NCBI GenBank assembly: GCA_044226625.1
Contig: JBGAGQ010000102.1
Coordinates: forward strand, 1-15,152
Source: Thermoanaerobaculia bacterium
GTDB lineage: Bacteria; Acidobacteriota; Thermoanaerobaculia; Multivoradales; UBA5704
Length of the DNA: 15,152 bases
Direction of reading: 5' to 3'
Positions 5,353 through 15,152 of the stretch are shown piece after piece. The position numbers and the translations under genes are program-made. Below the pieces are notes generated by a model. The model saw only the letters and a list, made by a program, of their open reading frames with translations. It was not told the DNA's origin and did not search any database. The number at the start of each line of letters is the position of its first letter. The first letter of the stretch is position 1.

Positions 5353-6663
5353 CTACTTTGGAGGAGCGATCCCCAACTCGTCCCAGAGGAAGCGAAAGCT
5401 GGCGGGCTCGTGGCCCGTCTTGAGGGCGCCCCTGGCCTCGTGCTCCTCATAGTCTTTGAGCAGCTCCACCACCTGACGTCGGCCGGTTCGCGTCCGGATG
5501 GCCTCGCGCGGAGTGAGGCCGCCGAGGGCCGGAATCGGCTCGTCCGACCAATTTCGATAGAGCGCTCGATGGATCTCCTCCGGGAGCGGCCCATCGGATG
5601 GCTTCTTTTCGTGGGAAGGGGGCCGATGCGCCAGAGCGGCGAAGGGATCGACGACCTCGCGTGTCCGGTAGGTGAGTGCGGAACCAGCCACCTCTCGCAG
5701 CCAGGCCGCGCCTCGTTCCGCCCGACTCAGGGTTTGCGCGAAAGCCTCCAGGCGGTTCGCCTTGCCGAGGTTTAGGCTGAGGCTCGCCCGCTCGAAGGTC
5801 TGGCCCTCGACCGCTTCGAGCCGAACCCAGCCACTCTCTCGATCGCCCTCGACGTCGGGCTGTCGGGCGAGCGCGGCGGCGAGGGCATCCCAGTCGGCCA
5901 CGTCGTAGTGATCCGTGACTAGAAGCACGGGATCGCCCGAACCGGCGTCGACCAACTCCGGCAGAGGGGGAGGCGACGCCGTGACGTAGCGAAGCCAGCA
6001 GTCGACGATCGGCTCGCTTGCACGGTGCCCGGCTCGCTTCGCCGCGCGCACCTCCGCCTTGAGGTTTTTCAACTGATCGCGGGGAATCGGGTAGATCGCG
6101 CCGCTCAGCTGCCACTCCTTTTCCCGAGGGACGAGTCGTGCCCCCACGACGTCCCACCGAACCAGGCTTTGGGATCCCATGTGCTCGACGACCCAGAGAC
6201 GCCGCGCCTTCGGCTGCGCCGCGTCTTTGACCCAGAGGCCTTCTCCGGGCACCGCCTCCTGAACTTCATAGATCGACATGGAATGATCGGCCAGCGCTTG
6301 GAGCTTCTGCCGGTCTTCGACCGCGAGAGGAGGGCCTCCGAGACCGAGGAGCAGATCCGGAATCCGTCGACGCGCCCCGCGCACCTCGATTTCGCCCTCG
6401 GCAAGGAGCCATTCGGTGGCGTTGGCGTTGACGACCTCCTTGACCCCTTCGGGAAGCTCCAACAGGCGCGAGCCCTCTTCTTCGTCGAGGCCCGCGAAGA
6501 ATTCGGCGAGCGCTCGGGAGTACCCTTTGTCGTGGTTCCGCTCGAGCCATTCCAAGCAGATGTCCACCCACGACCTCGGCGCCCGCTCGCCGCGCAGGAG
6601 GCAGCAGTTCTTGTGTTTCTTGCCGCTGCCACAGGGGCAGGGATCATTGCGGCCGACTTTCAT
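5353..6663 (-). CDS. SEC-C motif zinc-binding protein with C-terminal Xre/MbcA/ParS antitoxin-like (DUF2384-type) domain, 436 aa
   Basis: N-terminal KVGRNDPCPCGSGKKHKNCC is a SEC-C motif. C-terminal NWSDEPIPALGGLTPREA matches the W..P...LGG.TP signature of MbcA/ParS C-terminal domains. Confidence 0.8.
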   Translation of the reverse strand: MKVGRNDPCPCGSGKKHKNCCLLRGERAPRSWVDICLEWLERNHDKGYSRALAEFFAGLDEEEGSRLLELPEGVKEVVNANATEWLLAEGEIEVRGARRRIPDLLLGLGGPPLAVEDRQKLQALADHSMSIYEVQEAVPGEGLWVKDAAQPKARRLWVVEHMGSQSLVRWDVVGARLVPREKEWQLSGAIYPIPRDQLKNLKAEVRAAKRAGHRASEPIVDCWLRYVTASPPPLPELVDAGSGDPVLLVTDHYDVADWDALAAALARQPDVEGDRESGWVRLEAVEGQTFERASLSLNLGKANRLEAFAQTLSRAERGAAWLREVAGSALTYRTREVVDPFAALAHRPPSHEKKPSDGPLPEEIHRALYRNWSDEPIPALGGLTPREAIRTRTGRRQVVELLKDYEEHEARGALKTGHEPASFRFLWDELGIAPPK

Positions 6664-11270: not shown

Positions 11271-11315
11271 AAACTTTCTCTGCCAGTCAGGAGTGTCACC
11301 GGGTTCGAGGAGGTC

Positions 11316-11720
11316 TCAGTTGCCCGAGGTCGCTTCGAACGGGGTGATGTCGGTCTTCGAGAAGTCGTTCCCTTTCAAGAGGAGAGGCTCGCCGAGCACC
11401 TTGGCCAGGGCGTAAGCGAAGCCGTCGCCGTAGTTCAGCCCGGCCGGATGACGTCCTTTGCCAAACTGGCTGAACGCACGGCGCGCCACCTTTCCTTGCT
11501 CGGCATCGACGGCGACGAGAAGGATCCCCGCCCGGTCGAGAAAGAAATCGAGCTCGCGCAACCCTTCGGCTCCCTGGCGAGACTCGATCACGAGCGAGCT
11601 CTCGACGAAGTTCGCCACGGACATCTTCCGCGACGGGGCCGCCTCAATCGCTTCATTGAACACGTGGCGTTCGGGCTCGGCCTGGAGGATTGCGAGCAAT
11701 GCCGACGTGTCGATCACCAT
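11316..11720 (-). CDS. vapC: VapC PIN-domain ribonuclease toxin, 134 aa
   Basis: MVIDTSALLAILQAEPE...LNYGDGFAYALAK...LLLKGNDFSKTD carries the PIN acidic residues. The start overlaps the antitoxin stop (TGATG). Confidence 0.95.
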   Translation of the reverse strand: MVIDTSALLAILQAEPERHVFNEAIEAAPSRKMSVANFVESSLVIESRQGAEGLRELDFFLDRAGILLVAVDAEQGKVARRAFSQFGKGRHPAGLNYGDGFAYALAKVLGEPLLLKGNDFSKTDITPFEATSGN

Positions 11721-11974
11721 CAGCTAGGCAGCCCGTTTTCGTCGTAGCCCAAGATCTCTTCGGCGGGCCGCGGATCGAGAACCGGCAGACTGGCGCACCG
11801 GAGAGCGATCTCGTCGAGCTCGTCGGCAAGGCGACGCCCTTTCCGTTCACGCTGAAGCCGCACGAGTTGGTCGCGAAGAGCCCGCCGGACCGCCTCGGTC
11901 TTCGTCTCGCCGGTCAGGCTGGCCAATTCTTGTGCCAGTTCCTCGGTCTCGCGGTTTTTGATGTTGAGCGCCAT
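11720..11974 (-). CDS. vapB: VapB antitoxin (Rv0623-like/PSK_trans_fac family), 84 aa
   Basis: MALNIKNRETEELAQELASLTGETKTEAVRRAL...ILGYDENGLP. It lies directly upstream of vapC and is translationally coupled to it. Confidence 0.92.
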   Translation of the reverse strand: MALNIKNRETEELAQELASLTGETKTEAVRRALRDQLVRLQRERKGRRLADELDEIALRCASLPVLDPRPAEEILGYDENGLPS

Positions 11975-11984
11975 GCATCCTCAC

Positions 11985-12004
11985 GTGTAGTAGTCCGACG
12001 ACAC
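11985..12004. promoter_or_regulatory. Imperfect palindrome upstream of vapB, candidate autoregulatory operator
   Basis: GTGTAGTAGTCCGACGACAC matches its reverse complement at 14 of 20 positions and lies 10 nt upstream of the vapB start. Confidence 0.4.
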
Positions 12005-12199
12005 GGTAATAACCCCTGACCTGCTCGTCAACGCAGCGATGCGAGCCCTGAATCTTTCGGAAAAGAGATCCGAAATCCGAGCCGCGCCGACTTTTTTCGG
12101 AAAAAGGGGCGATTTGCTCGACTTCTCGGAATTGTCTTCCTATCCTCCTGGATGTGGGAATCATCCCGCACCCGGCTTCGCCAAGGCGAAGGAGGAAGT

Positions 12200-12610
12200 A
12201 TGCGTCAGAGAGGGTATGCCGACATCGCGAACACCTGGAACGTCATGGTCGAGAACGCTCGGCCGATCTTGGGTTCGCTCGGCCCGGCGGTCGAGCGGCA
12301 CCAGAGCTTGGAGACGCACGTCCAGGACCTGCTCCGCTTCAACGAGCGGGCCGAAGCGATGCGCTCGGAGCTCACGAGCGTCATGAAGCAGCGTCGGGAG
12401 CTGGCCCGCGAGGGCGCGCACAGCTACCGGCGTTTCACCGCGGACCTGCAGGCCCATCACGGATTGGACAGCTCCGAGCTGATCCGCTACGGCCTCCAGC
12501 CGAAGGGTCGGCCCCGGAAGGTCAACGCCAAGAAGAAGAAGGAAGAGGAGGCGGCGAAGGCGAAATCGGTGGAGAAGGGCAAAGTCGACGTCGAAGTCGC
12601 CCCGGCTTGA
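12200..12610 (+). CDS. Hypothetical helical/coiled-coil protein with basic AT-hook-like tail, 136 aa
   Basis: ATG 12200 follows GGAGG. Helical heptad-like core, HGLDSSELIRYGLQP motif, then KGRPRK and KKKKEEEAAK. It has its own terminator downstream. Confidence 0.8.
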   Translation: MRQRGYADIANTWNVMVENARPILGSLGPAVERHQSLETHVQDLLRFNERAEAMRSELTSVMKQRRELAREGAHSYRRFTADLQAHHGLDSSELIRYGLQPKGRPRKVNAKKKKEEEAAKAKSVEKGKVDVEVAPA

Positions 12611-12633
12611 TCCCCGATTCACCTCTGTAGGTC

Positions 12634-12666
12634 GCGACGGGCGGTGGCAGCCGCCCGTCGTTGTTT
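12634..12666 (+). terminator. Rho-independent terminator
   Basis: Perfect 10-bp stem CGACGGGCGG / CCGCCCGTCG with a 6-nt loop, followed by TTGTTT. Confidence 0.75.
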
Positions 12667-12839
12667 CGCCCTCGCCGTCCGAAGAAAACTATCCCTTCAA
12701 GCCCAAGGACACAAGCTGCGGGGCCGCGGAAGGGCCCTGGAAGGGCCTGTTCGGCCCACGGTCCGCCGAATCCGCTTACGAGGTTTACCGCCTCGTGCCT
12801 GCGCAAAATAGCCGGCTGCGCTGGGATAGGGCGCTTGGC

Positions 12840-13043
12840 TCAGCCGTTGGAGCGACTTCGAGCGATGAGCTCGCGGACCTGCGGCACGAGCTCGACTGGC
12901 ACGTCCATCATCGTATGGGTGGTGGACTCATACGCCGCTTCGTCCTCGGCGATCGCTTGGTCCTCGGACTGCTGCTCATAGTGATCGAGGACGCCGAGAA
13001 CTCGGGTTTCATCCCAGCCGGCCGGAAATTTGGTCTTGCTCAT
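12840..13043 (-). CDS. Small acidic putative type II antitoxin (FPAGWDE...VPVELVPQVRELI family), 67 aa
   Basis: The likely start is ATG 13043 (MSKTKFPAGWDETRV), overlapping the stop of an upstream toxin-like frame (ATGA). Acidic EQQSEDQAIAEDEAAYE segment. The family assignment is from recognition only. Confidence 0.7.
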   Translation of the reverse strand: MSKTKFPAGWDETRVLGVLDHYEQQSEDQAIAEDEAAYESTTHTMMDVPVELVPQVRELIARSRSNG

Positions 13044-13135
13044 CGATTTCTTCCTGGCTTGAGGCGCCGTCTTAGGGCGCGAAGGACTTTCCACCCCAGA
13101 GGATACGCCGTGACGACGAAAACCGATTCCGCTCC
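13040..13135 (-). pseudogene. C-terminal remnant of a BrnT/DUF4258-like toxin
   Basis: Hand translation gives GAESVFVVTAYPLGWKVLRALRRRLKPGRNR*. The V-V-T-A-Y strand and basic tail are typical of these toxins. It is coupled to the antitoxin by ATGA. The frame upstream is not toxin-like and hits TAG at 13193-13195. Confidence 0.6.
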
Positions 13136-13143
13136 TGCTCCTG

Positions 13144-13170
13144 ATGGGTGCTGCTCCTGGCACCTATTCC
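13144..13170. repeat. Partial/collapsed copy of the REP-like motif (hairpin)
   Basis: ATGGGTGC (13144-13151) pairs with GCACCTAT (13160-13167). TGGCACCTATTCC matches TGGCACCCATTCC of the 13967 copy at 12 of 13 positions. Confidence 0.5.
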
Positions 13171-13265
13171 CGCAGCTCAAGAGTCCGAGAGGCTATTCAC
13201 GCGCCGGATATGTCCGAACTCGTTGGCGTTCGCCAGGCGCTTGGTTTTTGTAGGACGACCGCCGG

Positions 13266-13616
13266 TCACTCGGGGAGATCGATCGCAGCTCGTATTCCGA
13301 TCTCCACCATTCGCAGGTAGGGGCCAGTTAGGCGGCCGATCTTCTGCGTCAGCTTCGATCGATCGAGCGTTGTGATCTGGTGGCAGATAGCCGTACTAGC
13401 CTCCGGAAGGTTCGCGGTCCCTGCCGGGAGGTTCACCGAAGTTGGTCCCCGCCGGCCCTGAGACTTGGAGGTCGAGCACGGGACGACGATCACCGAACAC
13501 CAAGTAGGCGTTTCGTTGAAGGCGTCATGAGACAGCAGAATGACCGGGCGGCGTCCCCCCTGCTCAGATCCCGAGCGAGGTTTGAGATCGGCCCAGTAGA
13601 CATCCCCCCGCTTCAC
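13266..13616 (-). CDS. mazF: PemK/MazF family endoribonuclease toxin, 116 aa
   Basis: MKRGDVYWADLKPRSGSEQGGRRPVILLSHDAFN...VIVVPCSTS...CHQITTLDRSKL. The GTG start overlaps the antitoxin stop (GTGA). Confidence 0.93.
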   Translation of the reverse strand: MKRGDVYWADLKPRSGSEQGGRRPVILLSHDAFNETPTWCSVIVVPCSTSKSQGRRGPTSVNLPAGTANLPEASTAICHQITTLDRSKLTQKIGRLTGPYLRMVEIGIRAAIDLPE

Positions 13617-13879
13617 GCCGCTCTTTCATCTAGGAGCAACTCAAGGCTCGCCTCTTCAAGCTGCTCGTCCGAATCGAACTCCGTGCCGGCCTGGGCCTTC
13701 GCATAGGCCGCGATCTCTGAGTGGAGGCGCAGCCGTCGGCGCTGCTTGAGCCACTGGAGAAGCGCTTCACGGGCGAGCGAGGTTGCAGACTGGCCCGTCT
13801 GCTCCGCTTCTTCACGAAGCATCTGATGGAGGTCGCCGGGGAGCGGAAGGTGGAAGTTGAGCATGGCTGGCCTTGACAT
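13613..13879 (-). CDS. Ribbon-helix-helix (CopG-like) antitoxin partner of the PemK/MazF toxin, 88 aa
   Basis: RBS AGGAG. RHH pattern NFHLPLPGDLHQMLREEAEQTGQSATSLAREAL and an acidic C-terminus. It is coupled to the toxin. Confidence 0.8.
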   Translation of the reverse strand: MSRPAMLNFHLPLPGDLHQMLREEAEQTGQSATSLAREALLQWLKQRRRLRLHSEIAAYAKAQAGTEFDSDEQLEEASLELLLDERAA

Positions 13880-13890
13880 GTCGATTCTCC

Positions 13891-13927
13891 TGCCACGATT
13901 TTATGCCATAGATCGAGGTCGTGGCAA
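13891..13927 (-). promoter_or_regulatory. Sigma70-like promoter with overlapping inverted-repeat operator for the RHH/MazF operon
   Basis: Minus strand TTGCCA (13927-13922), 18-nt spacer, TAAAAT (13903-13898). Inverted repeat TGCCACGA (13891-13898) / TCGTGGCA (13919-13926). Confidence 0.6.
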
Positions 13928-13966
13928 TTGGCTCCAAGGCTGGCCTGAGGGTTCAATCTCGTTTTC

Positions 13967-13994
13967 AGGTTAGGGTGGCACCCATTCCGGCCCG
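13967..13994 (+). repeat. REP-like motif copy A (inverted relative to B and C)
   Basis: AGGTTAGGGTGGCACCCATTCCGGCCCG. The first 16 nt are identical to the reverse complement of copies B and C, and similarity continues with one gap. Confidence 0.75.
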
Positions 13995-14176
13995 CCATTC
14001 TTCCGGCTCGCGATTGGAAGTGACGATCGTGGAGTGTTTCTGGTGGCGCTCCAGGAGGATCTCGTAGAGGTCAACGGCTCTCCGTGGGATCGAGAGTGTC
14101 CAGGCCAGATTCGTCGAGCACCAGCAGGTCGACCGCAAAGAGTCGGTGCATCTCGCGTTCGAGGCTGTAGTCGAGC
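13995..14176 (-). pseudogene. istB: Internal fragment of IS21-family helper ATPase IstB, frameshifted
   Basis: LDYSLEREMHRLFAVDLLVLDESGLDTLDPTESR (Walker B DLLVLDE), then one extra base at ~14073, then DLYEILLERHQKHSTIVTSNREPEEW (the IstB TSN motif). There is no start, no Walker A and no istA. Confidence 0.8.
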
Positions 14177-14198
14177 CAGATAGGTGCCACCCTAACCT
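14171..14198 (-). repeat. REP-like motif copy B
   Basis: TCGAGCCAGATAGGTGCCACCCTAACCT, identical (28/28) to 14765-14792. Confidence 0.85.
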
Positions 14199-14298
14199 TT
14201 CGCAGGGTACGAGCACTAGTAACGCTGACCATATTAGCGAGATAATGAGTTGTTTAACAGCAAGACTAGAAGGCGGTAGGGTCAACGCGAGGTGTCGT

Positions 14299-14682
14299 AT
14301 GAAGAGGCTCAAGGCAATCCGTCGCAGCGATTTCGAGGTGGTGCTGGCCGAAGACTGGAGGCCCGTGGTCCTTGAAGGCAATGCAAGGCCGGAGTTCACG
14401 AGAAGGATTCCACAAGCGTGCATAATTGCAAGCGGCCAGGATCTGGCGACCGCTCCTCCGTACCGCTGCCCACAACTCCCCGATGCACGCCTCGTGGGAG
14501 GGATCGATGCTTGGCGTTCGGTAACAGATGACCCGGTACCTTTCAACAAAGACTGGTACGCGGTCGTCGCTTCGCCTTCCGATCCGGACTATGTTTTCGC
14601 GGTCGGTCCCCAGAGAGACTTGGAACATTGGAGCAGTGAGATCCCTTCACGGTATGACCGTATCAAAGTAGTCATCCTCTAA
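14299..14682 (+). CDS. Hypothetical protein (orphan, lower-GC cargo), ~127 aa
   Basis: GAGGT lies upstream of ATG 14299. The upstream segment is AT-rich (14221-14280 is 26/60 GC). No motif is recognised, and the start is uncertain. Confidence 0.5.
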   Translation: MKRLKAIRRSDFEVVLAEDWRPVVLEGNARPEFTRRIPQACIIASGQDLATAPPYRCPQLPDARLVGGIDAWRSVTDDPVPFNKDWYAVVASPSDPDYVFAVGPQRDLEHWSSEIPSRYDRIKVVIL

Positions 14683-14764
14683 GGTCTGTTCGCTGCCGCC
14701 TTAGCGATCGCCGAGGCTTCCCTGGCGGAGGTGGCGCGCTGAGCGCGACCAAGCCGCGGGTGGA

Positions 14765-14792
14765 TCGAGCCAGATAGGTGCCACCCTAACCT
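14765..14792 (-). repeat. REP-like motif copy C
   Basis: Exact 28-bp direct repeat of copy B, 594 bp downstream of it and ~240 bp upstream of the Y1 transposase start. Confidence 0.85.
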
Positions 14793-14904
14793 GCCGCGCG
14801 CCTCCCGCCGCTAAAGATTGCGTGCCGGTCAAGATCTTTTGTCAGCTCGGCAATCCCAACCAAATCAGCGTTTTCCACCCAGTTGACCCAGATTTCTCGG
14901 GGTT

Positions 14905-14929
14905 GACCCGCAAGATCTCTTGCGGGGTC
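14905..14929. other. GC-rich hairpin upstream of the HUH/Y1 transposase
   Basis: CCCGCAAG-ATCT-CTTGCGGG is a perfect 8-bp stem, extendable by GAC/GTC with a bulge. Confidence 0.5.
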
Positions 14930-15033
14930 GGGCCCTGCTGAGAACTGGATCGCAGGAGCCAAGCCGAACGCGCTCTGTAGTTTGACTCGACGCGGCTCGC
15001 CTGGTAGGGCTCTTGAGATGCCCGGCTGTCGAA

Positions 15034-15152
15034 ATGGCTCGGAAGATCCGATTCACGCCCGAAGGGGGAGCCCTCTACGAGGTGACCTGCCGTACGGTCC
15101 ACAGCCGATTCCTCCTGCGGCCGGGTCCTCTGCTCAACGAGACCATCGTGGG
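15034..15152 (+). CDS. N-terminus of a REP-associated/IS200-like HUH (Y1) tyrosine transposase, runs off the window
   Basis: Hand translation gives MARKIRFTPEGGALYEVTCRTVHSRFLLRPGPLLNETIV. This resembles the MARxxR...(Y/H)xVTxR...FLL N-terminus of RAYT/Y1 transposases. The HUH motif would lie beyond the window. Confidence 0.7.
   Translation, partial: MARKIRFTPEGGALYEVTCRTVHSRFLLRPGPLLNETIV

Follow-up and report, generated by a model that had tools for sequence, protein, structure and literature searches.

RESULTS

Organization of the contig end

The window, i.e., the whole stretch of DNA analyzed here, is the entire 15,152-bp contig C111 of a genome of 6.6 Mb assembled in 133 contigs and 97.9% complete. 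The features discussed below are located toward its right end and are as follows, the inner and outer sides of the motif being those defined further on.

13159-13170, plus strand: solitary outer sub-repeat GGCACCTATTCC, which is reiterated beside many motif copies in relatives
13266-13879, minus strand: mazEF-type toxin-antitoxin pair, cargo of the module ending at copy A
13266-13616, minus strand: PemK/MazF toxin of that pair (Pfam PemK_toxin, E 2.1e-26)
13613-13879, minus strand: RHH/RelB-like antitoxin of that pair (NCBIfam RelB-like antitoxin, E 1.5e-4, below its cut-off)
13913-13966, plus strand: inner flank of copy A, which recurs along with the motif beside a different gene in the congener G001
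13967-13989, plus strand: motif copy A (16-nt core at 13967-13982 plus CATTCCG), whose outer side points right
13990-14177, minus strand: IS21-family istB relic (residues ~150-217 of 253, Walker B to TSN-x5-W)
14171-14198, minus strand: motif copy B (core at 14183-14198), identical to copy C at 28 of 28 positions
14199-14715, plus strand: segment with a 127-aa ORF (ORF127, 14299-14682) without family assignment
14716-14766, plus strand: second IS21 relic (end of istA and first 9 codons of istB), abutting copy C
14765-14792, minus strand: motif copy C (core at 14777-14792), left terminal motif of the RayT-like element
14793-15152, plus strand: leader and 5' part of a RayT-like (Y1/HUH) transposase gene that begins at 15034 and runs off the contig

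Profile searches gave no family match for ORF127, and its only homologue among 60 relatives, a distant one with 39% identity, gave no motif information on the other end of the module. In an Rfam scan that also took in two island loci, no family matched window 12380-15152 at gathering thresholds. A Logan contig of run X1, possibly from the same sample, covers 13600-14802 without differences or gaps; since this second assembly is identical over that range, the arrangement is not an artefact of one assembler. In the same run, a low-depth contig (record 4; 4.6x versus 14.9x) corresponding to window 14773-14802 carries the same motif core and RayT leader next to a different outer flank, and represents another copy or a strain variant of the RayT-like left end.

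Elsewhere in the window, a 916-aa ORF (162-2912) carries a UvdE UV-endonuclease domain confined to its C-terminal third, and a 436-aa ORF (5353-6663) has a SEC-C motif at its N terminus and an Xre/MbcA/ParS antitoxin toxin-binding domain at its C terminus. A VapBC-like (PIN) module at 11315-12038 is 92% identical to a motif-bounded module in G003:C2, the corresponding motif being degenerate or partly deleted in the window.

Three copies of a short motif

The 16-mer AGGTTAGGGTGGCACC is found at 13967 (plus strand, copy A), 14183 (minus strand, copy B), and 14777 (minus strand, copy C), and a search allowing up to 2 mismatches returned 3 matches versus 0.01 expected from 200 shuffles. Copies A and B, whose cores are 216 nt apart, face each other as an inverted pair that is perfect over 16 nt (13967-13982 and 14183-14198) and imperfect over ~23 nt. 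An earlier note on this DNA had described them as an inverted pair of 28-nt repeats; the inversion holds over 16 nt, but A and B are not alike over the assumed 28 nt. The 28-nt identity (TCGAGCCAGATAGGTGCCACCCTAACCT, 28 of 28 positions) lies instead between B and C, which are direct copies and bracket 566 bp made of ORF127 and a 49- to 51-bp scrap of IS21. Such a geometry would be expected from a circle that integrated at a site or from a junction that was copied. Moreover, the 28 shared nucleotides include 3 to 7 nt beyond the usual motif that match the istB parent, a hint that a junction was copied; the nearest RayT-like relatives of copy C diverge right after ...CACCTATC.

Identity between window 13913-13982 and G001:C4:36460-36530 is 80%, with the homology ending inside the motif. 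Copy A and its 54-nt inner flank thus recur in another species next to another gene and another outer flank, which argues that copy A belongs to the sequence on its left and that there is no empty site for an insertion of 232 bp. The mazEF-side module terminates in copy A, and the left end of the RayT-like element is copy C. Copy B has no conserved inner flank and is assigned to its module from the orientation of the motif and its identity to copy C.

Single motif copies fold no better than shuffles (z +0.25 to +1.2). When the 232-bp unit is folded as a single strand, the 16-nt inverted pair of A and B forms the closing stem of a hairpin (z -2.6). Pairing between the two ends is confined to these 16 bp, and the istB interior has an unrelated local structure.

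The enclosed istB relic and its parent

Read on the minus strand, the interval between A and B encodes ...LEREMHRLFAVDLLVLDESG... (Walker B) and then, after a frameshift, ...AVDLYEILLERHQKHSTIVTSNREPEEW. The Pfam profile IstB_IS21 aligned to a 42-aa piece of it over profile positions 172-204 (E 0.0016; 18.4 bits versus a cut-off of 24.1), and tblastn with an intact congener IstB located residues 150-217 of 253 with 77 to 88% identity. Among the 60 relatives searched, window 13990-14177 was 89% identical at the DNA level, over 188 nt, to the intact istB gene of G004:C145, which encodes a full 253-residue IstB and adjoins istA; identity to a second intact istB, in G014, was 80%. The earlier note was therefore correct in deriving the insert from the interior of an IS21 istB gene. 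An extra A at 14073/14074, found in neither intact istB, breaks the reading frame, and the 188-bp relic is a frameshifted pseudogene piece without function of its own.

The same note had stated that the homology stops at the edges of the repeats, and the three-way alignment agrees: past both breakpoints the two intact istB genes run on and still agree with each other, but the sequence of the window changes to that of the motif. This change occurs at about 13986-13991 on the A side. On the B side, the junction could fall anywhere in 14171-14177, because the sequence there, TCGAGCC, is part of both the istB homology and the 28-nt B/C repeat. Relative to the 28-nt repeats assumed earlier, the istB homology extends 5 nt into copy A and 7 nt into copy B. 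The BLASTN search proposed for the parental element found none in the genome itself, the parent with mapped breakpoints being the intact istB of the congener G004:C145. A genome-wide tblastn search with IstA and IstB of G004 found no other istA or istB piece of that IS, and istB homology therefore does not continue beyond the motifs. What is present is an internal istB fragment only, not a complete IS21 with istA, a full istB, and terminal inverted repeats.

Further junctions between IS21 sequences and the motif

The second relic (14716-14766) is 98% identical (50 of 51 nt) to an intact and different IS21 on contig C93; the istB start codon is changed from ATG to CTG, and copy C is joined at istB codon 9. 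The C93-type and G004-type IstB proteins share 31% identity and thus represent two IS21 types. All three motif copies of the window meet internal IS21 sequence on the same, outer side, 5 to 12 nt past the core. A fourth junction was found in G003:C2 (L043 4097-4279), where a relic of a third IS21 type, encoding IstB residues ~190-251, begins immediately outside the motif copy that ends a RayT-like element. Four IS21 junctions on the same side of the motif fit a site-specific break better than random decay. When the parental IS21 was scanned for look-alikes of the outer part of the motif, the junction sites were not in the top 6; hence, target mimicry does not explain the four IS21 strikes. The motif was absent from 13 of 13 near-full-length istB loci of the genus (within the fetched loci), and neither the terminal repeats of the G004 parental IS21 (...GTGGCTAAC...TGGTGGCTAACGACA) nor the end of the C93 element (TGTCAAGCGACACCC...) correspond to it.

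Beyond the IstB relic of G003:C2 lie a ~190-aa ORF and then GCACCTATTTC/GCACCTATTCCGG sub-repeats. The intact C93-type IS21 (C93 3046-5385) assembles at ~3x the depth of the contig, and a further, 5'-truncated copy ends contig C42 (49230-49426); this IS21 is therefore probably active or was so recently.

The RayT-like element

The RayT-like gene begins 836 bp downstream of the 232-bp unit. The region 14793-15152 shows 74 to 83% DNA identity to many copies in congeners, and the encoded product is 92% identical at the amino acid level to an intact paralogue on contig C79. This paralogue scored 28.1 bits with Pfam Y1_Tnp (cut-off 23) and 43.1 bits with NCBIfam REP_Tyr_transpos NF047646, below the cut-off of 80, with profile positions 9-144 of 146 aligned. 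The RayT-like protein is included in a JGI family of >3000 proteins named "REP element-mobilizing transposase RayT"; a PDB sequence search gave no match at E up to 1.

Homology of the element to its relatives begins at copy C (14765-14774), and a related variant of the motif lies upstream of the C79 paralogue. In relatives, RayT-like genes are bracketed by inverted motifs with TAT(C/T).GG pointing outward (4279, minus, and 5622, plus, in L043; 8667, minus, and 10037, plus, in L044), and in the window only the left end, copy C, is present before the contig ends. The association of the repeat with a RayT-like tyrosine (Y1/HUH) transposase gene, a premise of the REPIN reading in the earlier note, is thus borne out, with copy C as the left end of the element. 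RayT-like matches number 4 in the genome itself and 14 to 34 in each of five congeners, where they are mostly fragmentary, many being truncated or interrupted by stop codons.

Distribution of the motif and of the modules that it ends

Within the 6.6 Mb of its own genome, the motif has 3 exact copies, all within 830 bp. The next-best 16-mers have 2 to 3 mismatches and look like chance matches, and the candidate of a genome-wide REP was rejected. With up to 1 mismatch, 4 to 13 copies were found in 5 of 7 congeners and essentially nowhere else among the 60 relatives. In 185,579 species genomes, a 20-nt degenerate pattern had 31 matching stretches, which were confined to six acidobacterial MAGs.

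We compared the window with 12 loci from related islands (144 kb in all), 59 motif copies being counted in the window and these loci together. The aligned copies define a ~23-nt unit, (C)AGGTTAGG(G/C)TGGCACC-TAT(C/T)(T/C)(G/C)GG, and one or two additional GGCACCTATTCC sub-repeats frequently come after it. In 34 of the 59 copies, the flank lying upstream of AGGTTAGG is shared with copies at other loci, versus 8 of 59 for the opposite flank. The motif is a module end, its inner side being the one upstream of AGGTTAGG and its outer side that of TAT(C/T).GG, and this polarity is statistical rather than absolute. One class of inner flank is a unit of at least 140 nt present at many ends and possibly the common right end of the element family; another is the ~240-nt leader of the RayT-like gene. 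The unit of at least 140 nt had no Rfam match. It ends in a CGAGGA...TCCTCG hairpin followed by the motif, and occurs at the ends of both RayT-like and toxin-antitoxin modules (L047 1490-1650 and 3310-3470, L048 9790-9950, and ~17 more in L042-L052). Many module ends carry 2 to 3 reiterated GGCACCTATTCC sub-repeats, and tandem duplications with a 36- to 37-nt period (...TCTCGTCCTC-(A/G)GGTTAGGCTGGCACC-TATTCCCGG) are present at L045 5041-5112 and L052 3129-3202. No compensatory changes supporting a hairpin were seen by eye among the motif variants. A match to the Acido-Lenti-1 RNA (Rfam, 40.7 bits, gathering score 37) was found at L048 9437-9482 on the minus strand, ~300 nt from a motif copy.

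The genes of these islands include PIN, ParE, PemK, HicB, and DUF433/DUF5615 toxin-antitoxin pairs, together with TIR, Abi, and Hypoth_Ymh genes and an ISL3. The 44 intervals between adjacent motifs in the 12 loci comprise 9 plus-minus, 9 minus-plus, 16 plus-plus, and 10 minus-minus arrangements, and the closest inverted pair among them is 303 nt apart. The nine plus-minus intervals, comparable to the A-B interval, contain mostly whole and varied genes, including a ParE toxin-antitoxin pair; mobile-element sequence occurs in 2 of them (an intact ISL3 and a piece of the RayT-like leader), IS21 in none of the 9, and no recognized mobile-element sequence in 7. The earlier note had named other motif pairs enclosing random sequence as an observation that would refute its reading, and this is largely what these intervals show. 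Nine of the 59 motif copies have a truncated piece of the RayT-like gene no more than 120 nt away, on the outer side in 5 and on the inner side in 5, and gene fragments are as frequent against the inner side as against the outer one. Given the IS21 junctions and these truncated RayT-like pieces, the motif is a recurrent, general breakpoint in these islands.

Part of the motif, GTTAGGC/GTTAGGG, resembles GTTRRRY, the core of integron attC sites. This candidate was set aside: no inverse core site was seen upstream by eye, no integrase family was found among the 177 island ORFs scanned, and the bases after the core are conserved, which is not predicted for attC.

DISCUSSION

We consider, with somewhat better than even confidence, that the 232-bp unit is a junction scar and not an element, left when an IS21 was trimmed on both sides at two module ends. 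We propose a model in which the contig end would belong to a hypervariable island of modules sharing a ~23-nt end motif, tied to a multicopy RayT-like Y1/HUH gene. An IS21-family element would once have stood between the mazEF module end (copy A) and the twin of the RayT-like left end (copy B). Events at both ends, e.g., adjacent deletions promoted at element ends, recombination with non-cognate DNA, or nested insertions followed by loss, would then have removed all but 188 bp of istB, so that the outer sides of both motifs now flank the fragment. Copy C may have been joined to istB codon 9 of the second IS21 in the same process, and the RayT-like enzyme would be the one that cuts and joins at the motif. 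Since no intermediate was found, neither an intact IS21 between the two ends nor an IS21 with a single module inserted, we infer the trimming history, and the order and type of its events are proposed here as candidates. Relics of insertion sequences produced by nested insertion and adjacent deletions are similar in being truncated, frameshifted pieces with breakpoints at the termini of neighboring elements and with the rest of the IS gone. They differ in their neighbors, which are here RayT-type modules and not IS with DDE transposases; to our knowledge, adjacent deletions have not been described for RayT-type elements. Several observations stand against the scar: the inner/outer polarity is statistical, plus-minus intervals of relatives often contain whole genes, gene fragments are equally frequent on both sides of the motif, copy B lacks a conserved inner flank, and the 28 nt shared by B and C, including parental istB bases, are not predicted by a simple two-deletion model.

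The sequence shared by B and C speaks for a read-through capture (transduction), in which a RayT-type module beside an IS21 would have carried flanking istB sequence to another motif copy by imprecise or one-ended HUH transposition, the fragment becoming cargo of copy A or B. The fragment begins and ends precisely at motif copies, and the genome contains nothing else of this IS; B and C are identical at 28 of 28 positions with the outermost 3 to 7 nt matching istB, as if an end had been copied with its flanking bases, and these direct repeats around 566 bp look like an integrated segment. Capture of gene fragments by HUH transposons is documented for Helitrons (PMC4778049). IS91/ISCR elements and Helitrons resemble the present case in their HUH-type transposase and in the foreign gene fragment lying against an element end, and differ from it in being Y2 or Rep-helicase rolling-circle systems without inverted ends, whereas the enzyme here is of the Y1 type, the ends are inverted, and no mobilized second copy of the fragment was found. 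Indeed, neither the fragment nor either junction has a second copy in the genome, the 60 relatives, or the metagenome contigs, where the A junction and the extended B/C end each gave 0 matching stretches, although records of the genome itself may be missing from these contigs. Furthermore, the A-type end occurs in G001 without IS21, and the 7-nt overlap at B is equally expected from microhomology-mediated joining. We know of no rolling-circle transposition by Y1 enzymes of the IS200/IS605 and RAYT types, and we regard such a capture as rather improbable.

The reading of the earlier note, a REPIN-like nonautonomous element of 232 bp made of two inverted REPs and a captured spacer and mobilized in trans by the RayT-like transposase, appears very unlikely. 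The perfect 16-nt inverted pair does close a hairpin, a RayT-like gene does begin 836 bp downstream, and REPINs are defined as inverted REP doublets with a spacer (PMC3116915). Against this, the unit is single copy, no second copy being present in the genome or the 60 relatives, nor in metagenome contigs searched with the junction pattern. The motif does not behave as a REP, with its 3 genome copies packed within 830 bp and its single copies, not palindromic by folding, showing no advantage over shuffles. No inverted doublet closer than 303 nt exists among the 44 adjacent intervals of the 12 related islands, and the sides that face inward in the unit are those that face outward on RayT-like elements. 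Moreover, copy A keeps its left flank in another species, and the unit lacks an empty site. An IS21-derived MITE, i.e., a miniature deletion derivative whose own terminal inverted repeats would be the motif, would suit the geometry of inverted ends around IS21 coding sequence, and the GGCACCTATTCC sub-repeats beside the motif recall the reiterated IstA-binding repeats that IS21 ends carry. Nevertheless, both parental IS21 types have different terminal repeats, which refutes this candidate for the two parents seen; the motif is lacking at all 13 near-full-length istB loci of the genus and brackets RayT-like genes instead, and the fragments at A/B and at C come from two unrelated IS21 types with 31% IstB identity. 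This origin has hardly any probability left. The same can be said of a spacer-like record of an invading IS21, the second proposal of the earlier note, or of an antisense regulator against it; the single point in favor is the mobile-element origin of the enclosed sequence. Such inserts form no array, none of the 9 comparable intervals contains IS21, and 7 of the 9 have no recognized mobile-element sequence and hold mostly whole or unassigned genes. The genome has no intact copy of this IS to be targeted, its only intact IS21 being 31% identical at the protein level, and no Rfam family was found in the region.

Besides the junction scar itself, the surrounding modules invite comparison with known systems. 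The 188-bp and 51-bp relics are pieces of two IS21 family members with intact relatives in G004:C145 and C93; the enclosed 188-bp piece differs from a family member in having no istA, no terminal repeats, and no intact reading frame. IS200/IS605 elements have no terminal inverted repeats, carry distinct subterminal hairpins, and insert 3' of a fixed tetra- or pentanucleotide. The Y1 domain is present here as well, but the ends carry the inverted ~23-nt motif, inside many of them lies the ~140-nt unit with its CGAGGA...TCCTCG hairpin, and no fixed target sequence emerged. The closest likeness is with the REP/REPIN-RAYT systems, reportedly described by Nunvar in 2010: the transposase is a Y1/HUH enzyme of RayT type to which the NCBIfam REP_Tyr_transpos profile aligns end to end, and the gene is bracketed by an inverted short repeat also found away from the gene. 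The differences concern both the repeat and the gene. The repeat is rare, with 3 copies here and 4 to 13 per motif-bearing congener (up to 1 mismatch), while REPIN-associated RAYT groups have 57 to 140 repeat copies (Bertels et al. 2017, PMC5581495). It is clustered in islands instead of dispersed, it is not clearly palindromic, and close inverted doublets never formed in the 12 related islands, whereas classical REPINs, with ~71 nt separating their 16-mers, are present in hundreds of copies (Bertels and Rainey 2011, PMC3116915). The transposase gene, for its part, exists in several copies that decay as insertion sequences do, contrary to the single-copy, housekeeping-like status used as a criterion for RAYT genes (PMC5581495), and its NCBIfam score is below the curated cut-off.

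Tentatively, the ~23- to 28-nt motif might be a cut-and-join site at which the multicopy RayT-like Y1 enzyme, by joining module ends with one another and with non-cognate DNA, assembles arrays of toxin-antitoxin and defense cassettes in this acidobacterial genus and picks up or strands fragments of other mobile elements along the way, a possibility that we put forward as an unlikely one. If true, the istB piece and the 28-nt B/C repeat around 566 bp would be footprints of capture or integration, and the system would be a bacterial Y1 counterpart of the fragment capture by Helitrons and ISCR elements or of the site-bounded modules of integron cassette type.

The 232-bp unit itself is a dead relic of little importance, and its analysis removes the unsupported story of a REPIN with a captured spacer. 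Its surroundings contain a genus-restricted, IS-like RayT family whose short terminal motif marks the borders of toxin-antitoxin and defense modules and is repeatedly found at junctions with internal sequence of other mobile elements. This RayT-like module system is of moderate interest as a variation on the REP-RAYT theme. The usual description of RAYTs is that of domesticated, single-copy genes tied to abundant REPINs, and a multicopy relative that assembles arrays of gene modules would offer a useful contrast as well as a tractable system for studying where a RayT-type enzyme cuts and what gets joined.
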